From Promethearchaeota archaeon (GTDB lineage Archaea; Asgardarchaeota; Odinarchaeia; Odinarchaeales; JBHLKK01): DNA of 32,000 nucleotides. This document shows positions 1 through 21,805 of this stretch, piece after piece. The notes beneath the pieces were generated by a model. That model ran no database searches. It worked only from the letters and a program-made list of their open reading frames with translations, and had not been told where the DNA came from. The stretch is taken from assembly GCA_048939465.1 (NCBI GenBank), contig JBHLPL010000001.1:64684-96683 (forward strand), written 5' to 3'. A program made the position numbers and the translations under genes. Each line of letters opens with the position of its first letter. Position 1 is the stretch's first letter.

Positions 1-546
1 AAGAACCCTCCTGAGATTGTTGGCTTCCAACAGCTTGTTGATTAGCTCCTTTGCTTCATCCAGATTAATGTCTGATATGACAAATGATTTTACGATTTCC
101 AAAAGCTGACCTCTGACCTCTAAGCTTTTCCCGTAACCTGTTCCGTCCAGGGCAAGTAGAGTATAGGCAGTCTCAAGTATTTCTTTATCAAACCATTGCA
201 CGACCAGGTATTCATTTGTAACCCTTCTCAAATCTGTGGCGGTCTTAACGTCTTTGAGTATATGTGCTAGCCGTTCAATAAACGTTTCAAAAATCGCAAC
301 TATGTATTCTTGGACATTTGCGTCTATTCCGTATCTCTTCAACTCTTTTTTTATAATCTTTCTAAAGCCGGACTCGGTTATCTCTCCCTTCAAGTATTTA
401 ATGAACGGAGCAAAAAGATCTTTTTTGAGATTGTCCAAAGAGGGCGGCTTGAGTTCCCTGACTAGCCTCTCAGTCATTCCCCACACTATGAAATAGTAGA
501 AGTCTCCCATTGCCTTATAGTATTCGCTAGCGAATTCCTCACCCAA
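1..546 (-). CDS. Hypothetical alpha-helical protein, 3'-truncated by the window edge (not in ORF track)
   Basis: Translated by hand: TTG at 546 after SD GAGGTGA, then 182 stop-free codons to base 1 (MGEEFASEYYKAMGDFYYFIVWGMTERLVRELK...KLLEANNLRRVL). It starts 7 bp after the ATPase stop, so it is probably in the same operon. Confidence 0.8.
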   Translation of the reverse strand, partial: MGEEFASEYYKAMGDFYYFIVWGMTERLVRELKPPSLDNLKKDLFAPFIKYLKGEITESGFRKIIKKELKRYGIDANVQEYIVAIFETFIERLAHILKDVKTATDLRRVTNEYLVVQWFDKEILETAYTLLALDGTGYGKSLEVRGQLLEIVKSFVISDINLDEAKELINKLLEANNLRRVL

Positions 547-553
547 TTGCTGC

Positions 554-3160
554 TCACCTCTCATCAATGAGGTTTATCAGAGTATTCAAGAGTTCGCAGA
601 ACTTCCTGGCGTCTTCTTCGCTAGATGATACACCGACAAGAGATGCGATAGCGATTCTGTTGTTCTTTGCCGAAGTAATGGCAATTCTCAAGTTTCCCTT
701 TCCAGCCAAAATTACAGGTATCTCCTCATCTGATGGCACACTATCGATTGTCCAATTCTTGGATTTCAGTAAATCATGGATCTCCTGCAGGACTACTTGA
801 GGTTCCTTGGATACTTTCTTGTGACAAGTCTTGGAATATACCTTGATATCACTTGGGAACAAATGTTCGTGATATCTATACCTCATAAGTCTATTTAGAA
901 ATCTTTTTAACATGTCATCTGGAACATCAAGGGTCTTCGGTGCTGGTATTTCATAAGATCCGGCCGCTGCCACTTTTTCTGAGTCTTCGGGGTTGGCCCC
1001 TTCTTCAATGACTTCTTCGTCAGGTATTGCATATTCAATAAGCTTTGGAGATGCTTCTCTTCCGGCATGCTGACTTGTTCTGGGTCGAATTCTCAAAACA
1101 AATCCCCGGTTCGTAGTTAGTCTGGTTGACTGATCCATTATTATGGGGGTTCCAACTGGAAGGCTTCTTATGAAACTCGACTTTGAAATTTCTTTGGGAA
1201 TCTCTGCCGGGGATCTTTTCATGAGTGCCTTAATATCATCTGCATAAGTCAAGTTGTGAGCAATCAGAATATCTACTTGAGAGAGGATACGGGCGTCAGT
1301 TGCTGCTGGTTGTTGGGTACACAACAACAGCCCACATCCCGGTTTTCTGCCTTCTTTAGCGTAATCAATGAGGGGCTCAGAAGCAATTGTCTCTCCATCT
1401 GAAGGGACTACTTGCTGGGCTTCGTCTATTAGAAGCCAGGTTACTGGTATCTTTTCTTCTATATCCCCATATCCGAGATGTTTTGCCTCAATCGTTCTGG
1501 AGATCTTCTTTCGCTCTCTTAGGATCTTCCGTGCAAGAATCCCAACTACCAACTCCCGGATACTGTCCCCCAGAAAGCTTACATCTACTATAGTAATCTG
1601 ATTTGGAACAACTATTTCGTTGAATGCTGTCCCTTTCTTAGAGAATATCCCCCATTGTTTGGCGGATTCCAGTCTAGAAATAACGGCTCTTCGAGTATCA
1701 AGTCTGAATCCTCCTTCCTTGGAAAGGATTTCCGTATCATCTTGAACGCACTTTATCATATCGTCAATAGTGTAATCTTCTCCTTTACCATCAATACGCA
1801 TTCGGTTTCCATAGGCATCCACCACGGAATAGCCGTCTCTAACCTTATTGACTACTCTTCCGGTCAGAAAACCTCTTGGACTGGACTGCTCCAGTTTAAA
1901 GAGATAACACCAATCATCTGCAGTAAGCTCACCAGGCTTTATCGAGAATGCATCATCTCTTGTTTGTTCTGGAATCTGATGGAATAATCCTACAGGAACT
2001 AGGACCTGAACGTTTGAATATCCCTCTGGGTCTAGTTTCCATTCCCCAAGATTCTCTAGCTCGTCCTTCTCCCAGTTCGGATATTTCATGCTCCAAAATA
2101 TGCCCATCGGATCAACTATCACAACAGCTATCCCGAGACCACATCTAGCTAGTTCTTCAGCAATGACTCCGAGTGTGTATGATTTTCCGGATCCCCGATG
2201 GCCGCATATGAAAATAACGTGGGGTTTCACTGCGTCTACCAGTACCTTACGGCCGAAATACCCTTTACCGCCAGCAGGTTTTTCGCAGATCCTCCCAATA
2301 TACAAAGTCCCACGACATCCAAATTTCTCTTGAAATTGCTTGGTCCTCCCAACAATAACTGACTCTCCGAGACAGTCATCAAGGAGTCTCAGCTCCTCCT
2401 TCATTGCGGGGCTGTATTCAACAGGAAACGATTCCTCCTTGAGGACTCTCATCTCCCCCCTTACGTGGTTGATGAGCATCTGCAGTTCTTCTATACTTCT
2501 CGGAGGTATGGTCAGCATGCTTTCTATATATTTCCGAAGCTTATCCTTCTTTGGATAGTGCCCAGAGGAATATCCTGAGAGTTCCCACAGCATAAGCTCG
2601 ATAGTCTCTTCTTTCGTCAGCCCCTCAAAAGGCACTGCGTCAACTGAAGCGGTGTCCAGAAATTTTGAATCACCCAACGCGAGGTACAAAAGGAGGGACG
2701 CATTTATCCTATCGTTTCCGTCGAATTCCTTCAGCATACTGATAGCATTCTCTAGGTATCTCGGTTCTTTTTTCACGTTATATGCCTGAAGAAGTATGCG
2801 AAATCGATGTACGTCTATCTTGTTGTTAGATAGTGCGTAATCATATACCTTCTTCTCAGCCTCGTCAATATTTATTTCTAAGGCTCCCGAGGCTCCTTTC
2901 AATGCTTGAATGGTTTCCCAGGTATTCTTCAAAGGATCATCCTGAAATGCCCATTCCCCGGATGGTAATTGTGAGGAGAGAATGTCTTCGACAATGATTG
3001 ATGCTATTTCCAGAAAGACAAGGTCTTTTGTCATCTGATAGACTCGTACGCATGCATCGACGAGGAACGGTCTATCAACAGCTCTTGCGGATTCGGCACT
3101 GAAACTTGTTATGTAGTCTAGGATATGTGGTAATATTTCACATAGAGGTCTTCCATGCAA
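554..3160 (-). CDS. Multidomain HerA/FtsK-superfamily (DUF87-type) P-loop ATPase with N-terminal helical-repeat domain and small C-terminal alpha/beta domain
   Basis: Walker A GHRGSGKS in HVIFICGHRGSGKSYTLG, IVDPMG strand, Walker B LLIDEAQ, KEGRKPG and TQQP motifs typical of HerA-like ATPases. TTG start after GGGGGA SD. Confidence 0.85.
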   Translation of the reverse strand: MHGRPLCEILPHILDYITSFSAESARAVDRPFLVDACVRVYQMTKDLVFLEIASIIVEDILSSQLPSGEWAFQDDPLKNTWETIQALKGASGALEINIDEAEKKVYDYALSNNKIDVHRFRILLQAYNVKKEPRYLENAISMLKEFDGNDRINASLLLYLALGDSKFLDTASVDAVPFEGLTKEETIELMLWELSGYSSGHYPKKDKLRKYIESMLTIPPRSIEELQMLINHVRGEMRVLKEESFPVEYSPAMKEELRLLDDCLGESVIVGRTKQFQEKFGCRGTLYIGRICEKPAGGKGYFGRKVLVDAVKPHVIFICGHRGSGKSYTLGVIAEELARCGLGIAVVIVDPMGIFWSMKYPNWEKDELENLGEWKLDPEGYSNVQVLVPVGLFHQIPEQTRDDAFSIKPGELTADDWCYLFKLEQSSPRGFLTGRVVNKVRDGYSVVDAYGNRMRIDGKGEDYTIDDMIKCVQDDTEILSKEGGFRLDTRRAVISRLESAKQWGIFSKKGTAFNEIVVPNQITIVDVSFLGDSIRELVVGILARKILRERKKISRTIEAKHLGYGDIEEKIPVTWLLIDEAQQVVPSDGETIASEPLIDYAKEGRKPGCGLLLCTQQPAATDARILSQVDILIAHNLTYADDIKALMKRSPAEIPKEISKSSFIRSLPVGTPIIMDQSTRLTTNRGFVLRIRPRTSQHAGREASPKLIEYAIPDEEVIEEGANPEDSEKVAAAGSYEIPAPKTLDVPDDMLKRFLNRLMRYRYHEHLFPSDIKVYSKTCHKKVSKEPQVVLQEIHDLLKSKNWTIDSVPSDEEIPVILAGKGNLRIAITSAKNNRIAIASLVGVSSSEEDARKFCELLNTLINLIDER

Positions 3161-3202
3161 ATGGTTTCCCCCATTGGCAGATTCAGATGTTTTCAGAAGG
3201 AA

Positions 3203-3817
3203 TCATGACCTGCTTTCCTTTAGTTTCTTAATTTCTTTTTCCAGCTCTGAGACCTTCTTCTCCGGTGCTGGAAGAGCAATACCTGTTTCAACAGTTATCT
3301 CCTGATCGATTTCGGTCAACGTTTTTTCAATTTCCTTATCACTAATCTCTTGCGAAACCGTGATTTCGAGTCCTGATTCAGCGATCTCTTTCGACACCTC
3401 AAATTGCTGTAGCTGACCTTCAACTTCTTTAATCAATTTGGCTATCTTTGGTACCTTCACAGCGTTCTTAAGTCCCCCAAGGACGTTACGGAGACTACCT
3501 AATATTTTGGACAAATCAGTAACAGATTCGCTTTGTCTGAGTTTTACAATTAGTCCCTCTATGGTCAATCTGTAGTTGTCAATGCCAACTGCCCACTTCT
3601 GAAATTGCAGGTAATGCTTTGCGTACGTCTTTGCAGCCTCATTATTGCCCTTGATACGTTGAGTTCGAGCTTTAGTACGGCTCTTGTCGCCTTCTCTTTC
3701 CAGTTGCATCCTTTGTCTATCGAGTTTCCGTGTGAGCAAATCCAACTGAAAAATGGCCTTCTCAAGCCTTTTTCTCTTAGACCCCCCTAACCAGTCAAAC
3801 AAACGGCCTAACGACAA
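3203..3817 (-). CDS. ESCRT-III subunit, Vps2/Vps24/Vps46 (CHMP1-3) class
   Basis: N-terminal amphipathic helix (LGRLFDWLGG), basic helical hairpin (LDRQRMQLERE...GNNEAAKTYAK), acidic C-half and terminal MIM1-like LEKEIKKLK. Divergent from vps4. TTG start after GAGGTG. Confidence 0.85.
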   Translation of the reverse strand: MSLGRLFDWLGGSKRKRLEKAIFQLDLLTRKLDRQRMQLEREGDKSRTKARTQRIKGNNEAAKTYAKHYLQFQKWAVGIDNYRLTIEGLIVKLRQSESVTDLSKILGSLRNVLGGLKNAVKVPKIAKLIKEVEGQLQQFEVSKEIAESGLEITVSQEISDKEIEKTLTEIDQEITVETGIALPAPEKKVSELEKEIKKLKESRS

Positions 3818-3978: not shown

Positions 3979-5142
3979 TTGGGATTGATGTCTGATAAGC
4001 TGTTCAAATACGCCACCCAGATGGCGAAGGAAGCTGTGAAACTTGACAAGCAAGGCAAACAGAAGCTGGCTGTACAGAAATATATTCATGCGGCCGATAT
4101 CTTGATGAGGTTTCTGAAATTAACCGAGAATCCCGCACTGAGAAAAGTATGTTATGAAAAGGCGGAGCAGTATGTGCAAAGAGCTAAAGAACTACAAGGT
4201 GTAACACCAGGTCTGCCGGCAGTATCAGAAAAAGCAGCGGGGAAAGCGCTGACCAAGGAAGATCAAGCCCTCCAAGAAGCAATCTCGGATACCATAATCA
4301 CTGAGAAACCAAGTGTTGAATGGGAAGACGTAGCAAATCTAGAGACGGCAAAACAAGCCTTGAGAGAGGCTGTTATCTTACCGATGCTCAGACCAGATAT
4401 TTTTACTGGTGCAAGGGAACCTTGGCGTGGATTATTGTTGATCGGACCACCCGGATGTGGAAAAACACTGCTCGCAAAAGCTGTGGCGAACGAATGCAAC
4501 GCAACATTCTTCAGCGCTGACGCAGCCTCTTTGGTTTCAAAGTGGCTGGGAGAATCGGAAAAACTTGTAAGCACATTATTTACCGTTGCACGAAGTAGCT
4601 CCCCTTCCGTTGTGTTCATCGACGAAGTGGATGCTTTGGCAACAGTTAGATCGGGTGATGAGGTTGGAGGTGAGCGGAGAATGAAGACGCAGCTATTAAT
4701 AGAAATGGATGGGGTTCGAAAACGAAAGGGAGAGCAAGTAGTAGTTCTTGGCGCCACGAACAGGCCATGGGATCTTGACCCGGGTTTTCGTAGAAGGTTC
4801 GAAAAAAGAATTTATGTGCCCCTTCCTGATAAGGAAGGCCGTCGCGAGATATTTAAGATTCACGTCAGAGGAATTGAAATAGCTTCAGATGTTGATTTTG
4901 ATGAACTAGCGACTCTTACTGAGGGATACTCCGGCTCAGATATTGCGCTGATATGTAGGGATGCTGCCATGATGCCAATACGTGAACTGGATACCGCAGG
5001 CACGTTGACTAGGAAAGATATCAAAGTTCGATCGGTAGATCGTGAGGATTTTCTGAAGTCCATGAAAAAGGTTAGGCCAACTGTTTCACCAGACGAACTG
5101 GAGAAATACGAGGAATGGACCAAAGAATTCGCATCAGAATGA
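3979..5142 (+). CDS. vps4: Vps4 AAA+ ATPase with N-terminal MIT domain
   Basis: Three-helix MIT (AKEAVKLDKQG...YVQRAKEL), WEDVA, GPPGCGKT, FIDEVD, GATNRPWDLD..RRFEKRIYVPLP, C-terminal helix PTVSPDELEKYEEW. The real start may be ATG 3988. Confidence 0.95.
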   Translation: MGLMSDKLFKYATQMAKEAVKLDKQGKQKLAVQKYIHAADILMRFLKLTENPALRKVCYEKAEQYVQRAKELQGVTPGLPAVSEKAAGKALTKEDQALQEAISDTIITEKPSVEWEDVANLETAKQALREAVILPMLRPDIFTGAREPWRGLLLIGPPGCGKTLLAKAVANECNATFFSADAASLVSKWLGESEKLVSTLFTVARSSSPSVVFIDEVDALATVRSGDEVGGERRMKTQLLIEMDGVRKRKGEQVVVLGATNRPWDLDPGFRRRFEKRIYVPLPDKEGRREIFKIHVRGIEIASDVDFDELATLTEGYSGSDIALICRDAAMMPIRELDTAGTLTRKDIKVRSVDREDFLKSMKKVRPTVSPDELEKYEEWTKEFASE

Positions 5143-5156
5143 ACTGGTGATATATA

Positions 5157-5903
5157 TTGTCGGTAAGGGAAAAGCCACGTAAAAAAGCTGGGAAGTCTCA
5201 AAAGGAAGAAACTGACAAGAAGGAGCGAATCAAAGAAGAGCTTGAGGAACTCAAGGAAGAAGTTGAAACAATGGTGGAGGCAGAAGAAGCTGAGACAATA
5301 GAAGAGGTTGAGAAAATCCAAGAGCCTAGCGCTAGGCAACTTCCGAAGGCGGTTGCTGAGGAAATCTCCTCTGAATTGGAGAAGATCTGTAACTTATATG
5401 AATGGGTTGCAAATCCTGAACAAGTCAGATGGATGTATTGGATGCCCTCCAATAAAGAGCATATTGATTCATGGAGAGACGAATGGGCTGATTTCTTGTT
5501 TCAATGGGCCCGAGCAAAAATCCTTCATATAGTAACACTGGTCTTGCTTATGGGTGAACACCCATTTGATAAGTTATCTCCAAAGGTGGATTCGCTGAGA
5601 GTTATTATGAAAACCCTAGCTGAGAAGGATCTTGCTGAATTCTTGGATAATAAAGAAACCAGATTGCGAATATACTGGAGGACTCTTAATGAGTGGGCAG
5701 AAATAATCTATAACTGGGCACTCAATACCGGAAGAATGGATATAAGTGTTTTTGATGTTATTAATGACAGAGGGGAAAAGTGGGGCTTTCACACGCTGCC
5801 AGCGAAAGAAATTAGACTCATCTTCAGGATTATGGTAGAGCGTGGGTTGGCCCGTTGGATGGACGAGAAGAGAGGCCATATTGAGATAAGAGTAGACTTT
5901 TGA
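5157..5903 (+). CDS. vps25: ESCRT-II Vps25 (EAP20)-like tandem winged-helix protein with charged N-terminal extension
   Basis: Vps25-type Trp pattern (SWRDEWADFL; LAEFLDNKETRLRIYWRTLNEWAEIIYNW; FHTLP..I...MVERGLARW). 14 bp after vps4; TTG start after GGTGA. Confidence 0.85.
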   Translation: MSVREKPRKKAGKSQKEETDKKERIKEELEELKEEVETMVEAEEAETIEEVEKIQEPSARQLPKAVAEEISSELEKICNLYEWVANPEQVRWMYWMPSNKEHIDSWRDEWADFLFQWARAKILHIVTLVLLMGEHPFDKLSPKVDSLRVIMKTLAEKDLAEFLDNKETRLRIYWRTLNEWAEIIYNWALNTGRMDISVFDVINDRGEKWGFHTLPAKEIRLIFRIMVERGLARWMDEKRGHIEIRVDF

Positions 5904-6023: not shown

Positions 6024-9000
6024 GTGGTCGTCATGCAAGCCAAAAGAAAAAATCTGCTAATATCTCTGGTCTTCACACTATTTCTGATCTCAACGCTCTC
6101 ATCAATTACAGTTCCACCCGTCACAGCTTCTCCAGATACTGCTGACTGGTGGAATTATAACTGGAATCAGAGGGTTCCAGTGATGATAAACACAACAGGT
6201 CACAACACATCCGACATACCGATAAAGATCGAAGGAATTAATTTCACTCAGCTTCTACTGGATCTGGGTGTCGGCTCTCCCCACGATAATAACTCGGTAA
6301 GAGTCGTGGAGTGGAACGTAGCATCGGAACTGAACACTGAATTACCGAGCTTATTTGCTCCTGCAGGCACGTATGACAGCTCCAGCAATGCTGTAGGTGA
6401 TGTTTACTGGACAATGAATGGAACAACACTTGAAAACACAAACAGAACCTTCTATGTATACTTCGATACTACTGATGCTCCTGGTGGTCCCAAGAGCCCA
6501 CCAAGCTACAGTGTGGATCCTCGTCTACCTGAAGGAATAGCCTATGTAAGAAACGCTAAGGACGATATATCTTATGAATCGGCCCAACAACTTGCTGCGG
6601 AATATGGGCTCGCCCAAGCTGCACTGTTCAATGAAAGCGTGAAATCAGGAAGTCATTACAGGAGCGGATCGGGTTGGCAAAACAACAGTATAGATCTCGT
6701 ACCTGATGACTACTCAATGATAATACTTGGGTCAGACTCCCTAGACGGTGGCGAAATACCTGGAAAACTCGATATAGACTCCCAATTCAGATCAAACTTG
6801 GAAGCTTTCATTGCTGGCGGCGGGATACTTGTTATTCAACAGATAACGTCAAGCGATCCTGCCCAGCCACTGACTGGAATTCAGTTCACAAGCTCTCACG
6901 GAGAAAGCTATAAGAAACCACTGCAACAGCACGAAATCACAACTAATCCAAACAATATTCGAACTGAAAATCTCAATTCGCTTTCAGATGGATTTGATAA
7001 AATTACGGACTCTACTCGCTACTCTTCGATAGCCAACGTGACAGATAACGGCGGAGGTCCAACAGGCCATCGAATCAGAATCATTCAGAGAGGAGCAGGC
7101 TATGTTATTGTAGAGGTACTGGGATGGACCTCAACTGGCGATATAGATAAGTGGAAACAGATCTTTGAAAACTATCTGAATTATCATATCAACCACACAA
7201 AGGATAGTCTGGCCATAACCGTTGGCAGCCAAGCAGAATATAGTCTGATTAACGATGTTACCGTAGTTGTAACAAATCATGAAGGATTATTCGTTCCTGA
7301 CGCAAATGTTACTATGGTCAACACGACAGCCCAGGCAAACAATCTTAGTGGCTACAACCAATGGGCATTAACAGATAGCAACGGCCAAGTTTTCTTCCCG
7401 GATGTACCAGATAACAACTATAATGTTACGGCAACTTACGTAACTAACATGGGAGATAGCACCGGAATTCTGAACGATACATTTTCAAACTTCAACATCA
7501 ATTATACTCAAACCCTCAATCTTAAAGTAAACATTACAAGGCTATTAGTGAACATCACTGATGTAGATAATATGACCCAGTATGATCTGATACCTAACTG
7601 GGCAGAACATTATATCGTTGGCCTTTTCAACCAGTCCGATGGGAGTCCGATGGCCAACACAACGACAACAACCTTGTACGAGTCTGGTGGTATTAACTGG
7701 CTTGTAGGAGAACTCTGGTGGCATAATTCATCGGACAATCATGTGATCAAAGTATTGTATGAGCATCCTGATTATTCGAATACACTGACTCTTAACGAGA
7801 CTAGTAACATACAACTTGATGTTTCGACTTCCTTCAACGTCAACGTCAGTATGACAAGGCTGACTGTTTTTGCCCGTGGGTATCCGACCATCGATCCGCT
7901 TGTTAATGTGGTTCTTGAGTTGAGCAACGATACGCAAGCAATAGCTAATGTCACAGCAGACGATTCAGGAGCGGTAGTCTTCTACTGGAGGACTCAACCC
8001 TCGCAGAATTACTCTATACGCGCATTCTACTTCGATACACTGGTCTCATTCATCAAATTCCATGAAAGCTGGTCTGATTGGAATGAAAGCGTTAGCCTAC
8101 CACTTCCAAATGCTACCGAAAAGCTGATTGATATTCAGCTGGGTGCGGAGTATGAGACGGATCTTGTACTAACTGCTTTTACCCCCGACGTCACGTATGG
8201 GGATAACGTAACGGTCACCGTGTATTTCAATGTCACAAGTCCTTCGCCAAGACCCGTAACTGGAGCAACCGCCAGATGCTACCTCAGAGTGGGAACAACA
8301 GATATCTTTATGGAAACAATGACTGAGGCAGGTTCCGGATATTATACACTGACATTCAACACGACTCACTACGGTGGCATAATAGGCGATGAAAACATAG
8401 AATATCGTATCTTAGTAATTGTTGAAAAATCAGGGTATACCTCTCCTACGCCGATATTCACCGACCTGACAATCAGGGGGCTCGCAACAACTTTGGATTG
8501 TTCAATCTCACCAGAAACCATTTACTGGGGCGACCTCATAACAGTAGACGTTACGTACGAGGATTTGGAGGACGCAACAGTCTCATACATAATTGGAAGT
8601 TGGGATTCTGGCGTATTCAGTGATCTTGGAAATGGAAACTACCGCACCTCGATAGACACCTCTAAATCGTCCTTCTGGGGAGACTACATATTAAAAATAA
8701 CTGCCGAAAAGCCGAATTATGAAATGAAGTACGCAGAAATAGCTCTTAGAATCAATCAGATACAGACTCTGATAAACGGATCTCGTATACTTGTCACATC
8801 ACCCATCAGCGTGTATGCAATGGAAGACAGTTTAATACACTTCAACTACACAACAGCTGGCAATATCGGCATCAACTCGACAGTCCATCAGTACTACTGG
8901 GAGAGCATATCAAGCGGTAGTGGCTACGGAGACTTGTCTTATCTTGGGAACGGTATGTATGGGCTGGATTTTGATACTTCGAACAGATTTGTTGATGAAT

Positions 9001-9980
9001 ACACAATTGCTGTTATATTTGAGAAATCGAATTATGAGGCAAGAACTGCTACATTCAATCTGAAGGTACTCGGGAGACCCGCAGATTTTGAAACCGTCAG
9101 TTCATCCGTTTCAGCTGCTCACGGTAATGAGGCAACATTCAGCTTCCACATTTCAGATGCTCTAACCGGTCTTCCTCTTGAAAATGTGTCCATAGTCCTA
9201 GACTGTAGCATAAATCCGGCATATTTGTCTTGGATTAATGGTAGTGGATGGTATAACCTAACCATACTCACTGCAAATCTTTCGCCCGGTTCATACGATA
9301 TCAAATTGGTCATTACTCAATCAAACTACACAACTGAAGTCGAAAACGTTCATATGACCGTTGAATATGAAAGAATCCTTGGGATGCCTTGGCCTTCATT
9401 TATTCTAATGATTTCATTCATAGCTGGTGCCGTTGCTGCTACTGGGGGCCTTTTCAGATTCTACACTTGGAAGAAAGTACCGCCTCTTGTCAGGAACATC
9501 AATAAGAGCCTCAAACACATGCAGCAAGGAGAAGTTGTAAACATAAAAAAGACGTTTCCAGACACAAAGGATAGGGACTATGTTCTCGGAGAATTCCTGA
9601 ACGAAGAGCTGGAGATTCTGGGAATAAGATCTGCAGCCTATGGGGAAGAAGGTTCTCAACTGCTCTCCATAGTTTCGGCGGCGACTTCATCCGAAACCGA
9701 AACAACGGAGTCTGAAACGCAGGTTATCAGGGCAGCGGAATCTGAGACTTTGCCTGAACCGGAAGCAACACAACCTGAAATGAAGGAATCTGAAGCAATG
9801 CCAAAAGAACCAGTCGAAGAACTTGAGGTAACCAAGGAACCTGAAATAGAGAAACCGGAGAAGAAAAAGCCTTACTCGGCAAAAGCCGGACCTAAGAGGC
9901 TAAAGACCAAGAAAACAGAAAAGAGAGAATCGAAATCAAGGTCAGGGAAGTCAAAGGCAAAAAACAAGGTGCAGAAATAA
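6024..9980 (+). CDS. Large type I membrane surface glycoprotein (DUF2341-like N-terminus, beta-sandwich/Ig-like repeats, C-terminal TM helix, cytoplasmic tail)
   Basis: Signal peptide (KRKNLLISLVFTLFLISTLSS), WWNYNWNQRVPVMIN...FYVYFD DUF2341-like block, about 40 N-x-S/T sequons counted by eye, one TM (WPSFILMISFIAGAVAATGGLF), then an acidic/Pro and Lys-rich tail. Confidence 0.85.
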   Translation: MVVMQAKRKNLLISLVFTLFLISTLSSITVPPVTASPDTADWWNYNWNQRVPVMINTTGHNTSDIPIKIEGINFTQLLLDLGVGSPHDNNSVRVVEWNVASELNTELPSLFAPAGTYDSSSNAVGDVYWTMNGTTLENTNRTFYVYFDTTDAPGGPKSPPSYSVDPRLPEGIAYVRNAKDDISYESAQQLAAEYGLAQAALFNESVKSGSHYRSGSGWQNNSIDLVPDDYSMIILGSDSLDGGEIPGKLDIDSQFRSNLEAFIAGGGILVIQQITSSDPAQPLTGIQFTSSHGESYKKPLQQHEITTNPNNIRTENLNSLSDGFDKITDSTRYSSIANVTDNGGGPTGHRIRIIQRGAGYVIVEVLGWTSTGDIDKWKQIFENYLNYHINHTKDSLAITVGSQAEYSLINDVTVVVTNHEGLFVPDANVTMVNTTAQANNLSGYNQWALTDSNGQVFFPDVPDNNYNVTATYVTNMGDSTGILNDTFSNFNINYTQTLNLKVNITRLLVNITDVDNMTQYDLIPNWAEHYIVGLFNQSDGSPMANTTTTTLYESGGINWLVGELWWHNSSDNHVIKVLYEHPDYSNTLTLNETSNIQLDVSTSFNVNVSMTRLTVFARGYPTIDPLVNVVLELSNDTQAIANVTADDSGAVVFYWRTQPSQNYSIRAFYFDTLVSFIKFHESWSDWNESVSLPLPNATEKLIDIQLGAEYETDLVLTAFTPDVTYGDNVTVTVYFNVTSPSPRPVTGATARCYLRVGTTDIFMETMTEAGSGYYTLTFNTTHYGGIIGDENIEYRILVIVEKSGYTSPTPIFTDLTIRGLATTLDCSISPETIYWGDLITVDVTYEDLEDATVSYIIGSWDSGVFSDLGNGNYRTSIDTSKSSFWGDYILKITAEKPNYEMKYAEIALRINQIQTLINGSRILVTSPISVYAMEDSLIHFNYTTAGNIGINSTVHQYYWESISSGSGYGDLSYLGNGMYGLDFDTSNRFVDEYTIAVIFEKSNYEARTATFNLKVLGRPADFETVSSSVSAAHGNEATFSFHISDALTGLPLENVSIVLDCSINPAYLSWINGSGWYNLTILTANLSPGSYDIKLVITQSNYTTEVENVHMTVEYERILGMPWPSFILMISFIAGAVAATGGLFRFYTWKKVPPLVRNINKSLKHMQQGEVVNIKKTFPDTKDRDYVLGEFLNEELEILGIRSAAYGEEGSQLLSIVSAATSSETETTESETQVIRAAESETLPEPEATQPEMKESEAMPKEPVEELEVTKEPEIEKPEKKKPYSAKAGPKRLKTKKTEKRESKSRSGKSKAKNKVQK

Positions 9981-21157: not shown

Positions 21158-21805
21158 TTACTCTTTTTCTTTTTCCTCTTCTGGTATGTCTTCTTTAAGC
21201 CCTTTCTTAATATCTTCAAGTTCCTTCCGTATTTTGTCCTTCTTCTTTTCAGCGACAGCCTTCTCTTTTTCGGTGGGAATCTCAGGTAACTCTTCTTCTA
21301 TGGCCACTTCCTCTTGAAGTTTTGCTAACTCCCTCTCTACGTCAATGTCTTCGCCTTCATCCAAAGCTGTGGCACTTAACATCTCACTGGTTTTCTCTAT
21401 CTCATCAACCAGTTGTTCAGTTTTTAGCATAACTTCAGTAGCTTTCTCACTTGACATAAGTCTTCTTGCTTCTTCAAGTTGTTCAAGACCAACTTCAAGG
21501 GCACGTCCCATGTCGGCAGTATCTCTAGCAGTCTCGATCATATCAATAACATCTTCTAGGCTGCCTACCTGTCTATGATAACGATTCATCCATGTGGTAT
21601 ATCTTTTCCATTTTCGAAGATGTGTCCTTGCCCCATCTGTGTTTCCTTGCCTTACAAGCTCTCTTGCTCTCTGCTTGCTTTCTCCTGCCTTTCTTTCAAA
21701 TCCACGAACTCTGAGTGTCATCTTGTTGATTGTTGCACGCATTTCTGTAACTGCTTCGTCTCTGCTTTCCTTTTTCTTGGGGAATAGCTTCCTCAGAAAA
21801 CCCAA
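21158..21805 (-). CDS. snf7: ESCRT-III subunit, Snf7/Vps20/Vps32/Vps60 (CHMP4-6) class
   Basis: MGFLRKLF amphipathic N-helix, AR.LVRQGN.DGAR..LRK.K, LEDVIDMIETA...DMGRAL, acidic DIDVERELAKLQEE and LPEIPT. TTG start after GAGGTGA. Confidence 0.88.
   Translation of the reverse strand: MGFLRKLFPKKKESRDEAVTEMRATINKMTLRVRGFERKAGESKQRARELVRQGNTDGARTHLRKWKRYTTWMNRYHRQVGSLEDVIDMIETARDTADMGRALEVGLEQLEEARRLMSSEKATEVMLKTEQLVDEIEKTSEMLSATALDEGEDIDVERELAKLQEEVAIEEELPEIPTEKEKAVAEKKKDKIRKELEDIKKGLKEDIPEEEKEKE

Follow-up and report, generated by a model that had tools for sequence, protein, structure and literature searches.

A HerA-type ATPase with an N-terminal helical toroid is encoded beside ESCRT-III genes in seven or more families of Asgard archaea, related short forms stand in two ESCRT loci of Thermoproteota, and the best explanation, which we hold with moderate confidence, is that this ATPase serves the ESCRT-III system of archaea as a dedicated accessory motor. 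The case analysed here comes from a Promethearchaeota archaeon of the order Odinarchaeales, in a stretch of 32,000 nucleotides (the window; Table 1). ESCRT is the best-studied part of the eukaryote-like cell biology of Asgard archaea, with division, vesicle formation, protrusions and repair as candidate roles, and its parts list for reconstitution has so far held only ESCRT-IIIA/B and Vps4. Two uncharacterised families now join that list, the toroid-HerA ATPase and a helical partner with three bundles, and the conservation of a HerA-type motor and its partner in an ESCRT-III operon is a concrete and testable lead on what ESCRT does in these organisms.

Table 1. Features of the ATPase operon and of other ESCRT genes in the window, numbered from its first letter
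Feature	Position	Strand	Basis or remark
Helical partner, N-terminal part in window	1..546	-	Rest left of window (L001:16196-17230)
HerA-fold ATPase, 868 aa	554..3160	-	Pfam DUF87, structure match
C-terminal alpha/beta domain of ATPase, residues 738-868 + stop	554..949	-	Predicted alpha-beta-alpha-beta4-alpha, pLDDT 82-94
Acidic disordered linker of ATPase, residues about 705-734	959..1048	-	pLDDT below 50
Small beta domain (HAS-barrel position) and HerA-type RecA-like core, residues about 250-705	1046..2413	-	VIA, Foldseek, motifs
N-terminal (alpha/alpha)6 toroid of ATPase, residues 1-243, 12 helices	2432..3160	-	AF2 model, pLDDT about 90
Spacer, 42 nt, with SD-like GGGGGA ahead of ATPase TTG start	3161..3202	-	Read in sequence
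ESCRT-IIIA, Snf7 family, 204 aa, heads operon	3203..3817	-	Pfam Snf7
Vps4 (MIT + AAA + Vps4_C)	3979..5142	+	Pfam; NCBIfam CdvC 8e-102
Vps25-like ESCRT-II subunit with acidic N-terminal extension	5157..5903	+	Pfam ESCRT-II 2.8e-12
ESCRT-IIIB	21158..21805	-	Pfam Snf7 1e-19 (search of own genome)

A preliminary description of this DNA had proposed an operon of ESCRT-III, an 868-aa ATPase and a helical ORF, with 42 and 7 nt between the genes, that is divergent from vps4-vps25. The ORFs and the divergent pair, the latter identified by Pfam, are as claimed; the first gap is exact and the second is right if the partner starts at TTG 546, the ORF list offering an earlier TTG at 567. An SD-like GAGGTG lies 6 nt ahead of the TTG start of ESCRT-IIIA, and GAGGTGA, overlapping the stop codon of the ATPase, precedes the partner start at 546; the N-terminus of the ATPase is set by its homologues, whose alignments begin at residue 2. 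The operon terminates left of the window edge, where a convergent coiled-coil ORF comes after the partner gene, and then genes for a RING-Arf GTPase, E2, E1, Yip1 and HDAC. A promoter and terminator scan of the bacterial type, which is not applicable to archaea, gave nothing above shuffled sequence.

The toroid-bearing orthologue is present in 32 of 400 Asgard genomes, from eight families. In seven of these families every genome (20 of 20) has a same-strand Snf7 gene beside it, 6-410 nt upstream and/or 50-1155 nt downstream; in the eighth, f13, a Snf7 gene follows 1.2-2.9 kb downstream, past the partner gene, in 5 of 12, and two well-flanked f13 loci have none within 6 kb. The usual Asgard order is ESCRT-IIIA, ATPase, an optional helical partner and ESCRT-IIIB, with linked examples in Hodarchaeota, Jordarchaeia/Freyarchaeota, Helarchaeota Hel_GB_B, Wukongarchaeum and Heimdallarchaeota MAGs. 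Both linked loci of Thermoproteota carry a short form of the ATPase: on a contig labelled 'Nitrososphaeria' the order is Snf7, Snf7-like, Vps25-like, ATPase and Vps4, and in a Bathyarchaeota MAG Vps4 is divergent from Snf7, Snf7-like, Vps25-like, Zn-ribbon and ATPase genes. The linkage tracks the toroid or C-terminal domain, as no Snf7 gene lies within about 6-8 kb of any of about 90 control loci that encode the ATPase core only (0 of 31 in Asgard archaea, 0 of 59 in other archaea). The 59 core-only relatives show synteny only at the level of lineages, with the housekeeping genes GlmS, PGM, thiolase and TGT and one unannotated ORF of 507 aa, and these neighbours give no clue to an ancestral function. 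An apparent Snf7-ATPase fusion of 1169 aa (G125) proved to be an artefact, in which a run of N bridges two genes.

The Snf7 gene that adjoins the ATPase is the A-type paralogue, its B-type partner having been relocated by 18 kb. ESCRT-IIIA matches Pfam Snf7 at 8e-14 (52 bits, the cut-off being 27.3), has CHMP1B, CHMP2A and CHMP3 as nearest solved relatives in the PDB, is 44-51% identical to the Snf7 protein whose gene precedes that of the ATPase in loci of the Jord, Hel and Loki types, and has a conserved tail with VETG..LP..P and ELEKEIKKLKE. ESCRT-IIIB, which is encoded downstream of the ATPase in other Asgard lineages and is here 18 kb away, has Heimdall AB_125 ESCRT-IIIB as its nearest solved relative (3e-17) and shares 29-37% identity with the Snf7 protein encoded on the downstream side at other loci.

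The helical partner, 344-351 aa at full length, is 36% identical (E 6e-79) to a 345-aa ORF that follows the Jordarchaeial ATPase, and its family lies downstream of the ATPase in the Asgard families f1, f13 and f16. It is linked to ESCRT-III in its own right, since in family f28 it stands between two Snf7 genes where no ATPase is present. The AF2 model (pLDDT 80.7) is all-helical, with three predicted bundles, and found no match as a fold (best VIA Z 7.8, on single bundles; Atlas TM at most 0.32). Nothing like a Bro1, BAR or MIT protein stood out in these fold searches.

That the ATPase is a HerA/FtsK-like translocase, as first described, is borne out for the HerA fold. Pfam DUF87 ('HerA central domain') matches at aa 318-546 (1.3e-13), the best Foldseek matches are HerA (E 1e-17), and Sulfolobus HerA (4d2i_B) aligns over 340 residues with a VIA Z of 32.9 and an rmsd of 3.4, followed by HerA-DUF, the DndH C-domain and VirB4 (Z 25-26; 25.3 for VirB4) and then FtsK (18.9). 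Across 54 homologues no variation is seen in Walker A (G320-S327), in Walker B (D579, E580) or in the arginine of GRKPG (R605), so that the fold comes with both Walker motifs and the arginine finger of a HerA-type ATPase. With archaeal HerA (4d2i, 9x1m) it has in common the beta domain, the RecA-like core, the helical insert, Walker A, Walker B and a GRK.G arginine motif, at 22% identity over 340 residues, and by analogy a ring translocase mechanism would be expected here too. It differs from archaeal HerA in its additional N-terminal toroid and C-terminal alpha/beta domain, and in its place in an ESCRT-III operon.

It is not a canonical repair HerA, a candidate rejected on its equivalog scores, its neighbours and its position in the tree. 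NCBIfam HerA models cover only aa 514-683 and score far under their cut-offs, both for canonical HerA (NF040937, 44 bits against 800; NF040819, 31 against 970) and for anti-phage HerA (NF042944, 36 against 850); the VirB4/CedB type, which the preliminary description had named for comparison, is missed as widely (CedD, 20 bits against 600; VirB4_plasma, 19 against 590). The nurA, mre11 and rad50 genes, already noted as missing beside the operon, are likewise absent from the genes left of the window; this genome has its HerA-NurA pair on another contig (C116), and NurA occurs nowhere but there, next to a DUF87 gene other than the one in the operon, and on C134. In the tree, the NurA-linked HerA of the same genome and two other paralogues fall outside the branch, supported at 99%, that holds the whole subfamily, far from the ATPase. 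The preliminary description had named clustering with canonical HerA, or a linkage unique to this genome, as grounds for abandoning its proposal; since the linkage recurs and the ATPase does not cluster with canonical HerA, neither ground applies, and the proposal is partly supported, with DNA clearance, cargo loading and DNA exchange as candidate activities.

The twelve helices of the predicted toroid lie within residues 10-242 of the AF2 model, and VIA aligns 216-232 of its about 243 residues with at least ten toroid proteins, among them GH76 mannanases, YPO2471, the thioester domains of alpha2-macroglobulin/C4 and class II terpene synthases, at Z 11.5-12.7, a range where helical repeats may match by arrangement alone. 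Profile (A3) and Pfam matches to six-hairpin proteins are weak yet consistent, all pointing to one superfamily, and Atlas features place the toroid with squalene cyclase and prenyltransferase clusters (0.79-0.83). As a modelled twelve-helix toroid that superposes on these proteins, it can be counted a probable member of the six-hairpin toroid superfamily. Its only invariant residues across 22 orthologues are W192, P203, R209 and E236. Toroids of the (alpha/alpha)6 type usually bind glycans, isoprenoids (lipids) or peptides, not DNA or ESCRT-III.

The linker that leads to the C-terminal alpha/beta domain differs in length between lineages. A tail of 104-125 aa aligns to this domain in most toroid-bearing forms and in the short forms of Thermoproteota, and Jord/Frey-type forms have a tail of ~230-250 aa. 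Most relatives have wHTH or DUF835/SAP tails in its place, and in close relatives, with cores 45-49% identical, it is replaced by a MarR/TrmB-type wHTH or SAP. Sequence comparison gave no usable match for the domain in Atlas features, and only coiled-coil noise in a PDB profile search. No likeness to known ESCRT-III-binding modules is seen in either extra domain, the C-terminal one being barely tested by fold search: there is no MIT match in the ATPase or the partner by Pfam, nor an MIT entry in their VIA lists, where whole-model searches test small domains poorly. A complex prediction of toroid and C-terminal domain with ESCRT-IIIA scored 0.13 against a mark of 0.32, which counts neither for nor against binding.

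A partnership of the ATPase with ESCRT is probable. By analogy with the HerA/FtsK superfamily, the ATPase would assemble as a hexameric ring and, at the expense of ATP, draw a polymer through the channel at its centre. In solved HerA rings the docking face for NurA or defence effectors is the N-terminal one, on the side of the beta domain, and because the toroid is fused just ahead of that domain, the mouth of the channel would carry a crown of six toroids. Recruitment of the ring to assemblies of ESCRT-III, or to the neck of membrane that they form, would fall to the toroid and/or the C-terminal domain, and the helical partner would act within the same assembly. Working on double-stranded DNA, such a motor would clear the neck ahead of scission in the manner of FtsK; alternatively, it may load DNA into vesicles or protrusions made by ESCRT.

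Given that partnership, DNA is somewhat favoured as the substrate and protein is possible. The preference for DNA arises from the solved structures nearest to the ATPase, which are those of DNA translocases, and from the wHTH or SAP tails of close relatives, although the wHTH argument is soft, since wH domains can bind proteins as well, as they do in ESCRT-II. Two preprints, as far as their accessible text goes, also count for DNA, reporting that Asgard ESCRT-III/Vps4 homologues are chromatin-associated when expressed in mammalian cells (bioRxiv 10.1101/2021.11.29.470303) and that ESCRT-dependent vesicles of Sulfolobus carry and transfer DNA (bioRxiv 10.1101/2021.02.09.430445). It is rather unlikely that the ATPase is instead a protein motor, which would thread or remodel ESCRT-IIIA/B polymers together with Vps4, or drive into forming vesicles some protein or glycoprotein that the toroid recognises. 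The synteny fits this equally, as do the glycans, lipids or peptides that the toroid fold typically binds, and some ATPases of the superfamily act on proteins: EccC and EssC, which move them, match the core at Z 15-19. The discussion in PMC10936438, in the part available, also allows that wH domains of the kind found in related tails could be protein-binding in ESCRT systems. DNA translocases are nevertheless the best matches by a wide margin, with HerA well above EccC and EssC, a Vps4 with its MIT domain is already encoded next door, and no MIT-like module is recognised in the ATPase.

We think it quite improbable that the gene order was kept without shared function, the ATPase being a housekeeping HerA paralogue of DNA metabolism that was inherited beside ESCRT-III. 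Many ESCRT-bearing Asgard genomes are consistent with it in having no ATPase: at E 1e-60 it was not found in 296 of 400, among them those of the two largest families (0 of 135 and 0 of 31) and of a sister family of the same order with four genomes 93-98% complete, so that the ATPase is dispensable for ESCRT. Toroid-bearing copies of Bathyarchaeota, moreover, stand among unrelated metabolic genes with no ESCRT gene within 7-8 kb. Against this, the linkage spans classes with only 33-45% identity and outlasts three arrangements (IIIA and IIIB flanking the ATPase; IIIB moved 18 kb away; clusters of Snf7, Vps25-like and Vps4 genes), one Thermoproteota locus having the ATPase directly between Vps25-like and Vps4; it goes with the extra domains, gaps are short and starts coupled, and the co-inserted partner is tied to ESCRT-III by itself. 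In a quick tree the ESCRT-linked forms split into adjacent clades, and the branches between these are very short and have poor support; a single clade of the forms with toroid or C-terminal domain is not rejected (p-AU 0.167), which is no proof of a single origin.

A HerA of defence or of a mobile element (Sir2-HerA, DUF4297-HerA, or a conjugation or packaging ATPase) inserted beside ESCRT genes is extremely improbable, for while PADLOC HerA and mad8 models match (25-58 bits) and the fold is common to VirB4 and the viral packaging ATPase B204 (Z 17), those PADLOC matches are at family level only and with no effector gene adjacent, no Sir2 or nuclease effector, integrase or capsid gene is found nearby in the window or its left flank, nor T4SS or Ced genes in the window or the 18 kb to its left, GC content is uniform across the region, and the position is stable across classes, unlike that of defence islands. 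Anti-phage HerA systems (Sir2-HerA, DUF4297-HerA and HerA-DUF; 8wld, 8zit, 9c1m) do have the HerA core in common with the ATPase, and place their effector on the N-terminal ring face, where the ATPase has its toroid fused in cis; a Sir2 or nuclease effector is replaced here by a toroid with little conserved surface, and a defence-island context by a stable, vertically conserved locus.

FtsK/SpoIIIE, of the same superfamily (the E. coli FtsK motor being the FtsK match above), is the paradigm for moving DNA at a closing membrane neck, which the proposed role of an accessory ESCRT motor would resemble, and HerA-type ATPases were reportedly proposed by Iyer and colleagues in 2004 as the archaeal counterparts of FtsK/SpoIIIE. 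FtsK/SpoIIIE proteins have membrane-spanning segments, an FtsK_SpoIIIE domain and a gamma (KOPS-reading) domain, whereas the ATPase lacks all three, with no membrane helices predicted in its AF2 model and no FtsK_SpoIIIE match in Pfam; FtsK is targeted by FtsZ divisome proteins, and the ATPase would be targeted via ESCRT-III. Vps4/CdvC is likewise encoded beside ESCRT-III genes, is hexameric and acts on ESCRT-III, the last two traits being only expected of the ATPase. Vps4 is an AAA+ protein with MIT, in contrast to an ASCE P-loop ATPase of the HerA-FtsK type without it, and as Vps4 is also present the ATPase would be an addition to it, not a replacement.

The window is otherwise typical of the Asgard ubiquitin-ESCRT cluster (Hatano et al. 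2022, PMC9192718; Makarova et al. 2024, PMC10936438), with E1, E2, RING, ESCRT-I/II, Vps4, ESCRT-IIIA and ESCRT-IIIB. Neither the ATPase nor the partner is mentioned in the main text of the former, or in the main and supplementary text, so far as accessible, of the latter, whose table S2 may list the gene without comment; nor did the ESCRT literature searched in full text yield any mention of a HerA-, DUF87- or FtsK-type ATPase in Asgard ESCRT loci, in agreement with the suggestion that the module is undescribed. As the linkage recurs and no paper describing it was found, the ATPase is probably an unrecognised second motor of a machinery that eukaryotes inherited. More doubtfully, though still possibly, the HerA-type pump and its helical partner are an ancient, overlooked ESCRT component that coupled DNA handling to scission. 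Such a component may predate the split of Asgard archaea and Thermoproteota; it would clear DNA from, or load it into, necks, vesicles or protrusions in step with ESCRT-III scission, and the archaeal ancestors of eukaryotes would have had a two-motor ESCRT whose second motor was lost later. Should DNA be what the motor moves, ESCRT-III of Asgard archaea acts at the meeting point of DNA and membrane necks, which would bear on chromosome segregation, on DNA-carrying vesicles and on eukaryotic ESCRT at the midbody and nuclear envelope.

No RNA dataset is among the runs listed as carrying this stretch of DNA; those that do contain it are metagenomes of mangroves and sediments, produced in several studies.

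The 868-residue ATPase encoded beside ESCRT-III in the window belongs to the HerA family, in which its architecture and its conserved system context are both new. The ORFs, spacers and start motifs, as read, show the gene layout of the preliminary description (ESCRT-III, HerA-like ATPase and a helical ORF, with gaps of 42 and 7 nt, divergent from vps4–vps25) to be accurate. The 42-nt spacer behind the Snf7 gene includes GGGGGA ahead of the TTG start of the ATPase, and the third gene most likely begins at a TTG 7 nt past the ATPase stop, with GAGGTGA overlapping that stop codon. This third gene, here termed the helical partner, has no family match in Pfam or NCBIfam; it is complete at 344–351 aa when the 18 kb left of the window are read, and the operon terminates there. 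The source assembly is 1.96 Mb in size and 91% complete, and the window corresponds to 64684-96683 of its contig C138. Neither the ATPase nor the helical partner is named in the ESCRT literature searched, which included part of one large supplementary table.

To the left of the operon lie, in order, a convergent coiled-coil ORF, a RING–Arf GTPase, E2, E1, Yip1 and HDAC genes. The RING–Arf gene encodes a RING finger fused to an Arf-like small GTPase and adjoins the E2/E1 genes. On the other side, downstream of vps25, a 1318-aa ORF has a CarboxypepD_reg-like domain as its sole domain match and a 1262-aa counterpart at the corresponding position of the sister genome (locus L002), and is probably a surface protein within the ESCRT cluster.

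Coordinates of features in the window, in the source genome (G000) and in extracted loci (L handles; L001 includes DNA left of the window)
Feature	Position	Strand or orientation	Basis or remark
Snf7-family gene (ESCRT-IIIA), 204 aa	3203-3817	-	Pfam and NCBIfam Snf7
ESCRT-IIIA C-terminus	3203-3300		VETG..LP..P, then ELEKEIKKLKE
HerA-type ATPase, 868 aa	554-3160	-	Pfam/NCBIfam DUF87/'HerA central domain' and C-terminal HerA motifs
Helical partner gene	start probably TTG 546, past left window edge	-	ORF
Vps4	3979-5142	+, divergent from ATPase operon	Pfam
Vps25-like ESCRT-II protein	5157-5903	+, divergent from ATPase operon	Pfam
1318-aa ORF	6024-9980
ESCRT-IIIB	21158-21805
RING–Arf-like GTPase	L001:14744-15475
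Canonical HerA–NurA pair	G000:C116:13967-15972
Partial NurA match	G000:C134:138-416		very start of contig
Loci with a helical partner of 355-385 aa (genomes G307, G308)	L111:6586-9899, L112:6585-9848		alone between two Snf7 genes
Kinase and FHA loci, Thermoproteota-labelled	L116:5230-10473, L132:2193-11114
ORF of ~507 aa, Methanofastidiosum-type genome	L137:4910-6433

The ATPase scores far under every HerA equivalog cut-off in NCBIfam, and no nurA, mre11 or rad50 lies beside the operon, including in the 18 kb left of the window, so that the absence of these genes noted in the preliminary description extends past the window edge. The source genome holds five other DUF87 genes, and because one of them, on contig C116, adjoins NurA, the canonical repair pair exists elsewhere in the genome; there is also a second, partial NurA match on contig C134. 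The phylogenetic comparison with canonical HerA that had been proposed likewise sets the ATPase apart: in a phylogeny of the ATPase core, a long branch with 99% support parts its subfamily from the NurA-linked HerA of the same genome and from two other paralogues. Within the subfamily the window ATPase pairs with that of a congener, and this pair lies among Jord/Frey, Hel-type and related forms. Deep branches of the tree have little length and poor support, and grouping all toroid- and C-domain-bearing forms into one clade is not rejected by an AU test (p 0.167).

To assess the ESCRT linkage, 400 Asgard genomes were searched with the ATPase and the flanks scanned using an HMM of Snf7 trained on 13 seed genes. 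Full-length orthologues bearing the N-terminal toroid domain described below were found in 32 genomes, which belong to eight families, and are 33–47% identical outside the genus. In seven of these families 20/20 genomes have a same-strand Snf7 gene as the immediate upstream and/or downstream neighbour, related genomes being non-independent samples in this and the other linkage counts, and the linkage is therefore not unique to the source genome. In the eighth (Heimdallarchaeota-labelled MAGs) the gene after the ATPase is that of the helical partner, and five of the 12 genomes have Snf7 1.2–2.9 kb downstream. The same arrangement is seen on contigs of other collections, from Hodarchaeota, Jordarchaeia/Freyarchaeota, Helarchaeota and a Loki-labelled MAG, the last of which has the gene within a textbook ubiquitin–ESCRT cluster (E1, E2, ubiquitin, RING, Vps23-like, Vps28, EAP30, Vps25, Vps4, Snf7, ATPase, Snf7). 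The ATPase is not found at E 1e-60 in most of the genomes searched, including a sister family within the same order, and so the motor is clearly an accessory rather than a core ESCRT component.

The Snf7 genes on either side of the ATPase form two orthologous groups, the upstream one, which includes the window's ESCRT-IIIA, being nearest to CHMP1B/2A/3 and the downstream one nearest to the solved Heimdall ESCRT-IIIB. In the source genome ESCRT-IIIB has been displaced by 18 kb, and the ATPase still stands beside the A-type gene. The C-terminal tail of ESCRT-IIIA carries sequence motifs, nearly invariant in the Hod, Jord, Hel and Wukong orthologues, that resemble paired MIM-type docking motifs. 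An apparent Snf7–ATPase fusion in one genome (G125; L063:2167-5676, a 1169-aa frame) is false, as a run of N joins the two genes, a trap for automated fusion detection.

The linkage to ESCRT-III, Vps25-like and Vps4 genes is conserved, holds across classes and tracks domain architecture. Within Asgard, Snf7 was found within about 6 kb at 0/26 loci of a shorter, toroid-less form, in the family where this is common, and at 0/5 other divergent loci. Scanning species-representative genomes gave 80 loci, with Snf7 nearby in 18 of 21 toroid- or C-domain-bearing ones (of the other three, two are on short contigs and one is from Bathyarchaeota) and in none of 59 core-only ones, these coming from Methanofastidiosa, Theionarchaea, Hadarchaeales, Iainarchaeia, Micrarchaeota, Thermoplasmata and a Hodarchaeaceae paralogue. 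Beyond Asgard there is a form of 747 aa in which the C-terminal domain is present and the N-terminal region is shorter. On a contig named 'Nitrososphaeria' this form stands in the order Snf7, Snf7-like, Vps25-like, ATPase, Vps4, and in a Bathyarchaeota MAG Vps4 is divergent from Snf7, Snf7-like, Vps25-like, Zn-ribbon and ATPase genes; these Thermoproteota orders are unlike those of Asgard, a difference that speaks against adjacency being simply inherited. Elsewhere in Bathyarchaeota, copies stand without ESCRT neighbours. In the Bathyarchaeota MAG genes for a Ser/Thr kinase and for an FHA protein follow, and the two Thermoproteota-labelled ESCRT loci both have such a pair next to the cluster, which hints at phospho-regulation. 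Among the core-only relatives, a ~507-aa ORF of no clear family overlaps the ATPase stop by 4 nt at one locus and eight similar ones in Methanofastidiosum-type genomes, and is possibly a partner of this non-ESCRT branch.

An AlphaFold2 model from 54 homologues (mean pLDDT 89.5) divides the ATPase into four parts, with an intact HerA-type active site and two extra domains. Residues 1–243 form twelve helices that superpose on (alpha/alpha)6 toroids over 216–232 residues with Z 11.5–12.7, a range that can arise from helical repeats; the matches include GH76 mannanases, YPO2471, alpha2-macroglobulin and C4 thioester domains, class II terpene synthases and cellobiose epimerases. The sequence profile of this domain gives weak matches, nearly all to six-hairpin proteins, its Atlas features lead to squalene-cyclase and prenyltransferase clusters, and we accept a toroid fold for the modelled domain. 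Residues about 250–705 match Sulfolobus HerA (Z 32.9, rmsd 3.4, 340 residues), followed by HerA-DUF, DndH and VirB4 (Z 25–26), TrwB and FtsK (Z about 19) and EccC/EssC (Z 15–19). Since all the homologues keep Walker A, Walker B and the GRKPG arginine unchanged, the enzyme is predicted to be active. A predicted acidic disordered linker (705–734) leads to a confidently modelled alpha/beta domain (738–868) without a match in sequence-based searches. Close core-only relatives carry MarR/TrmB-type winged helices, or DUF835 and SAP domains, in its place, and so the C-terminal region looks like a swappable adaptor.

By analogy with its family the ATPase would act as a hexameric ring translocase. In solved HerA complexes, NurA or defence effectors dock on one ring face; the toroid would be fused at that face and crown the channel entrance, and either extra domain, or the two together, may bring the ring to ESCRT-III assemblies, perhaps in concert with the helical partner. 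DNA is the favoured substrate, because DNA translocases are its closest relatives in structure, tails of the DNA-binding type occur among its relatives, and preprints report chromatin association of Asgard ESCRT-III/Vps4 homologues in mammalian cells (bioRxiv 10.1101/2021.11.29.470303) and DNA cargo in ESCRT-dependent Sulfolobus vesicles (bioRxiv 10.1101/2021.02.09.430445). A protein substrate is a serious rival, given that proteins are moved by some members of the superfamily, EccC for one, and that the usual ligands of toroids are glycans, lipids or peptides.

The helical partner is 36% identical (E 6e-79) to a 345-aa ORF after the Jordarchaeial ATPase, and follows the ATPase in three families, in every genome of which a profile run against the 400 genomes recovers it. 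Its own model (pLDDT 80.7) has three helical bundles and no convincing match in fold searches. With the profile it is also recovered from a fourth family, which lacks the ATPase at E 1e-60. In two genomes there, with no HerA-like ATPase at that cut-off, it lies alone between two Snf7 genes, which makes it an ESCRT-III-linked family in its own right. From these placements, either the ATPase or the partner can occupy the slot between ESCRT-IIIA and ESCRT-IIIB, and so can the two together.
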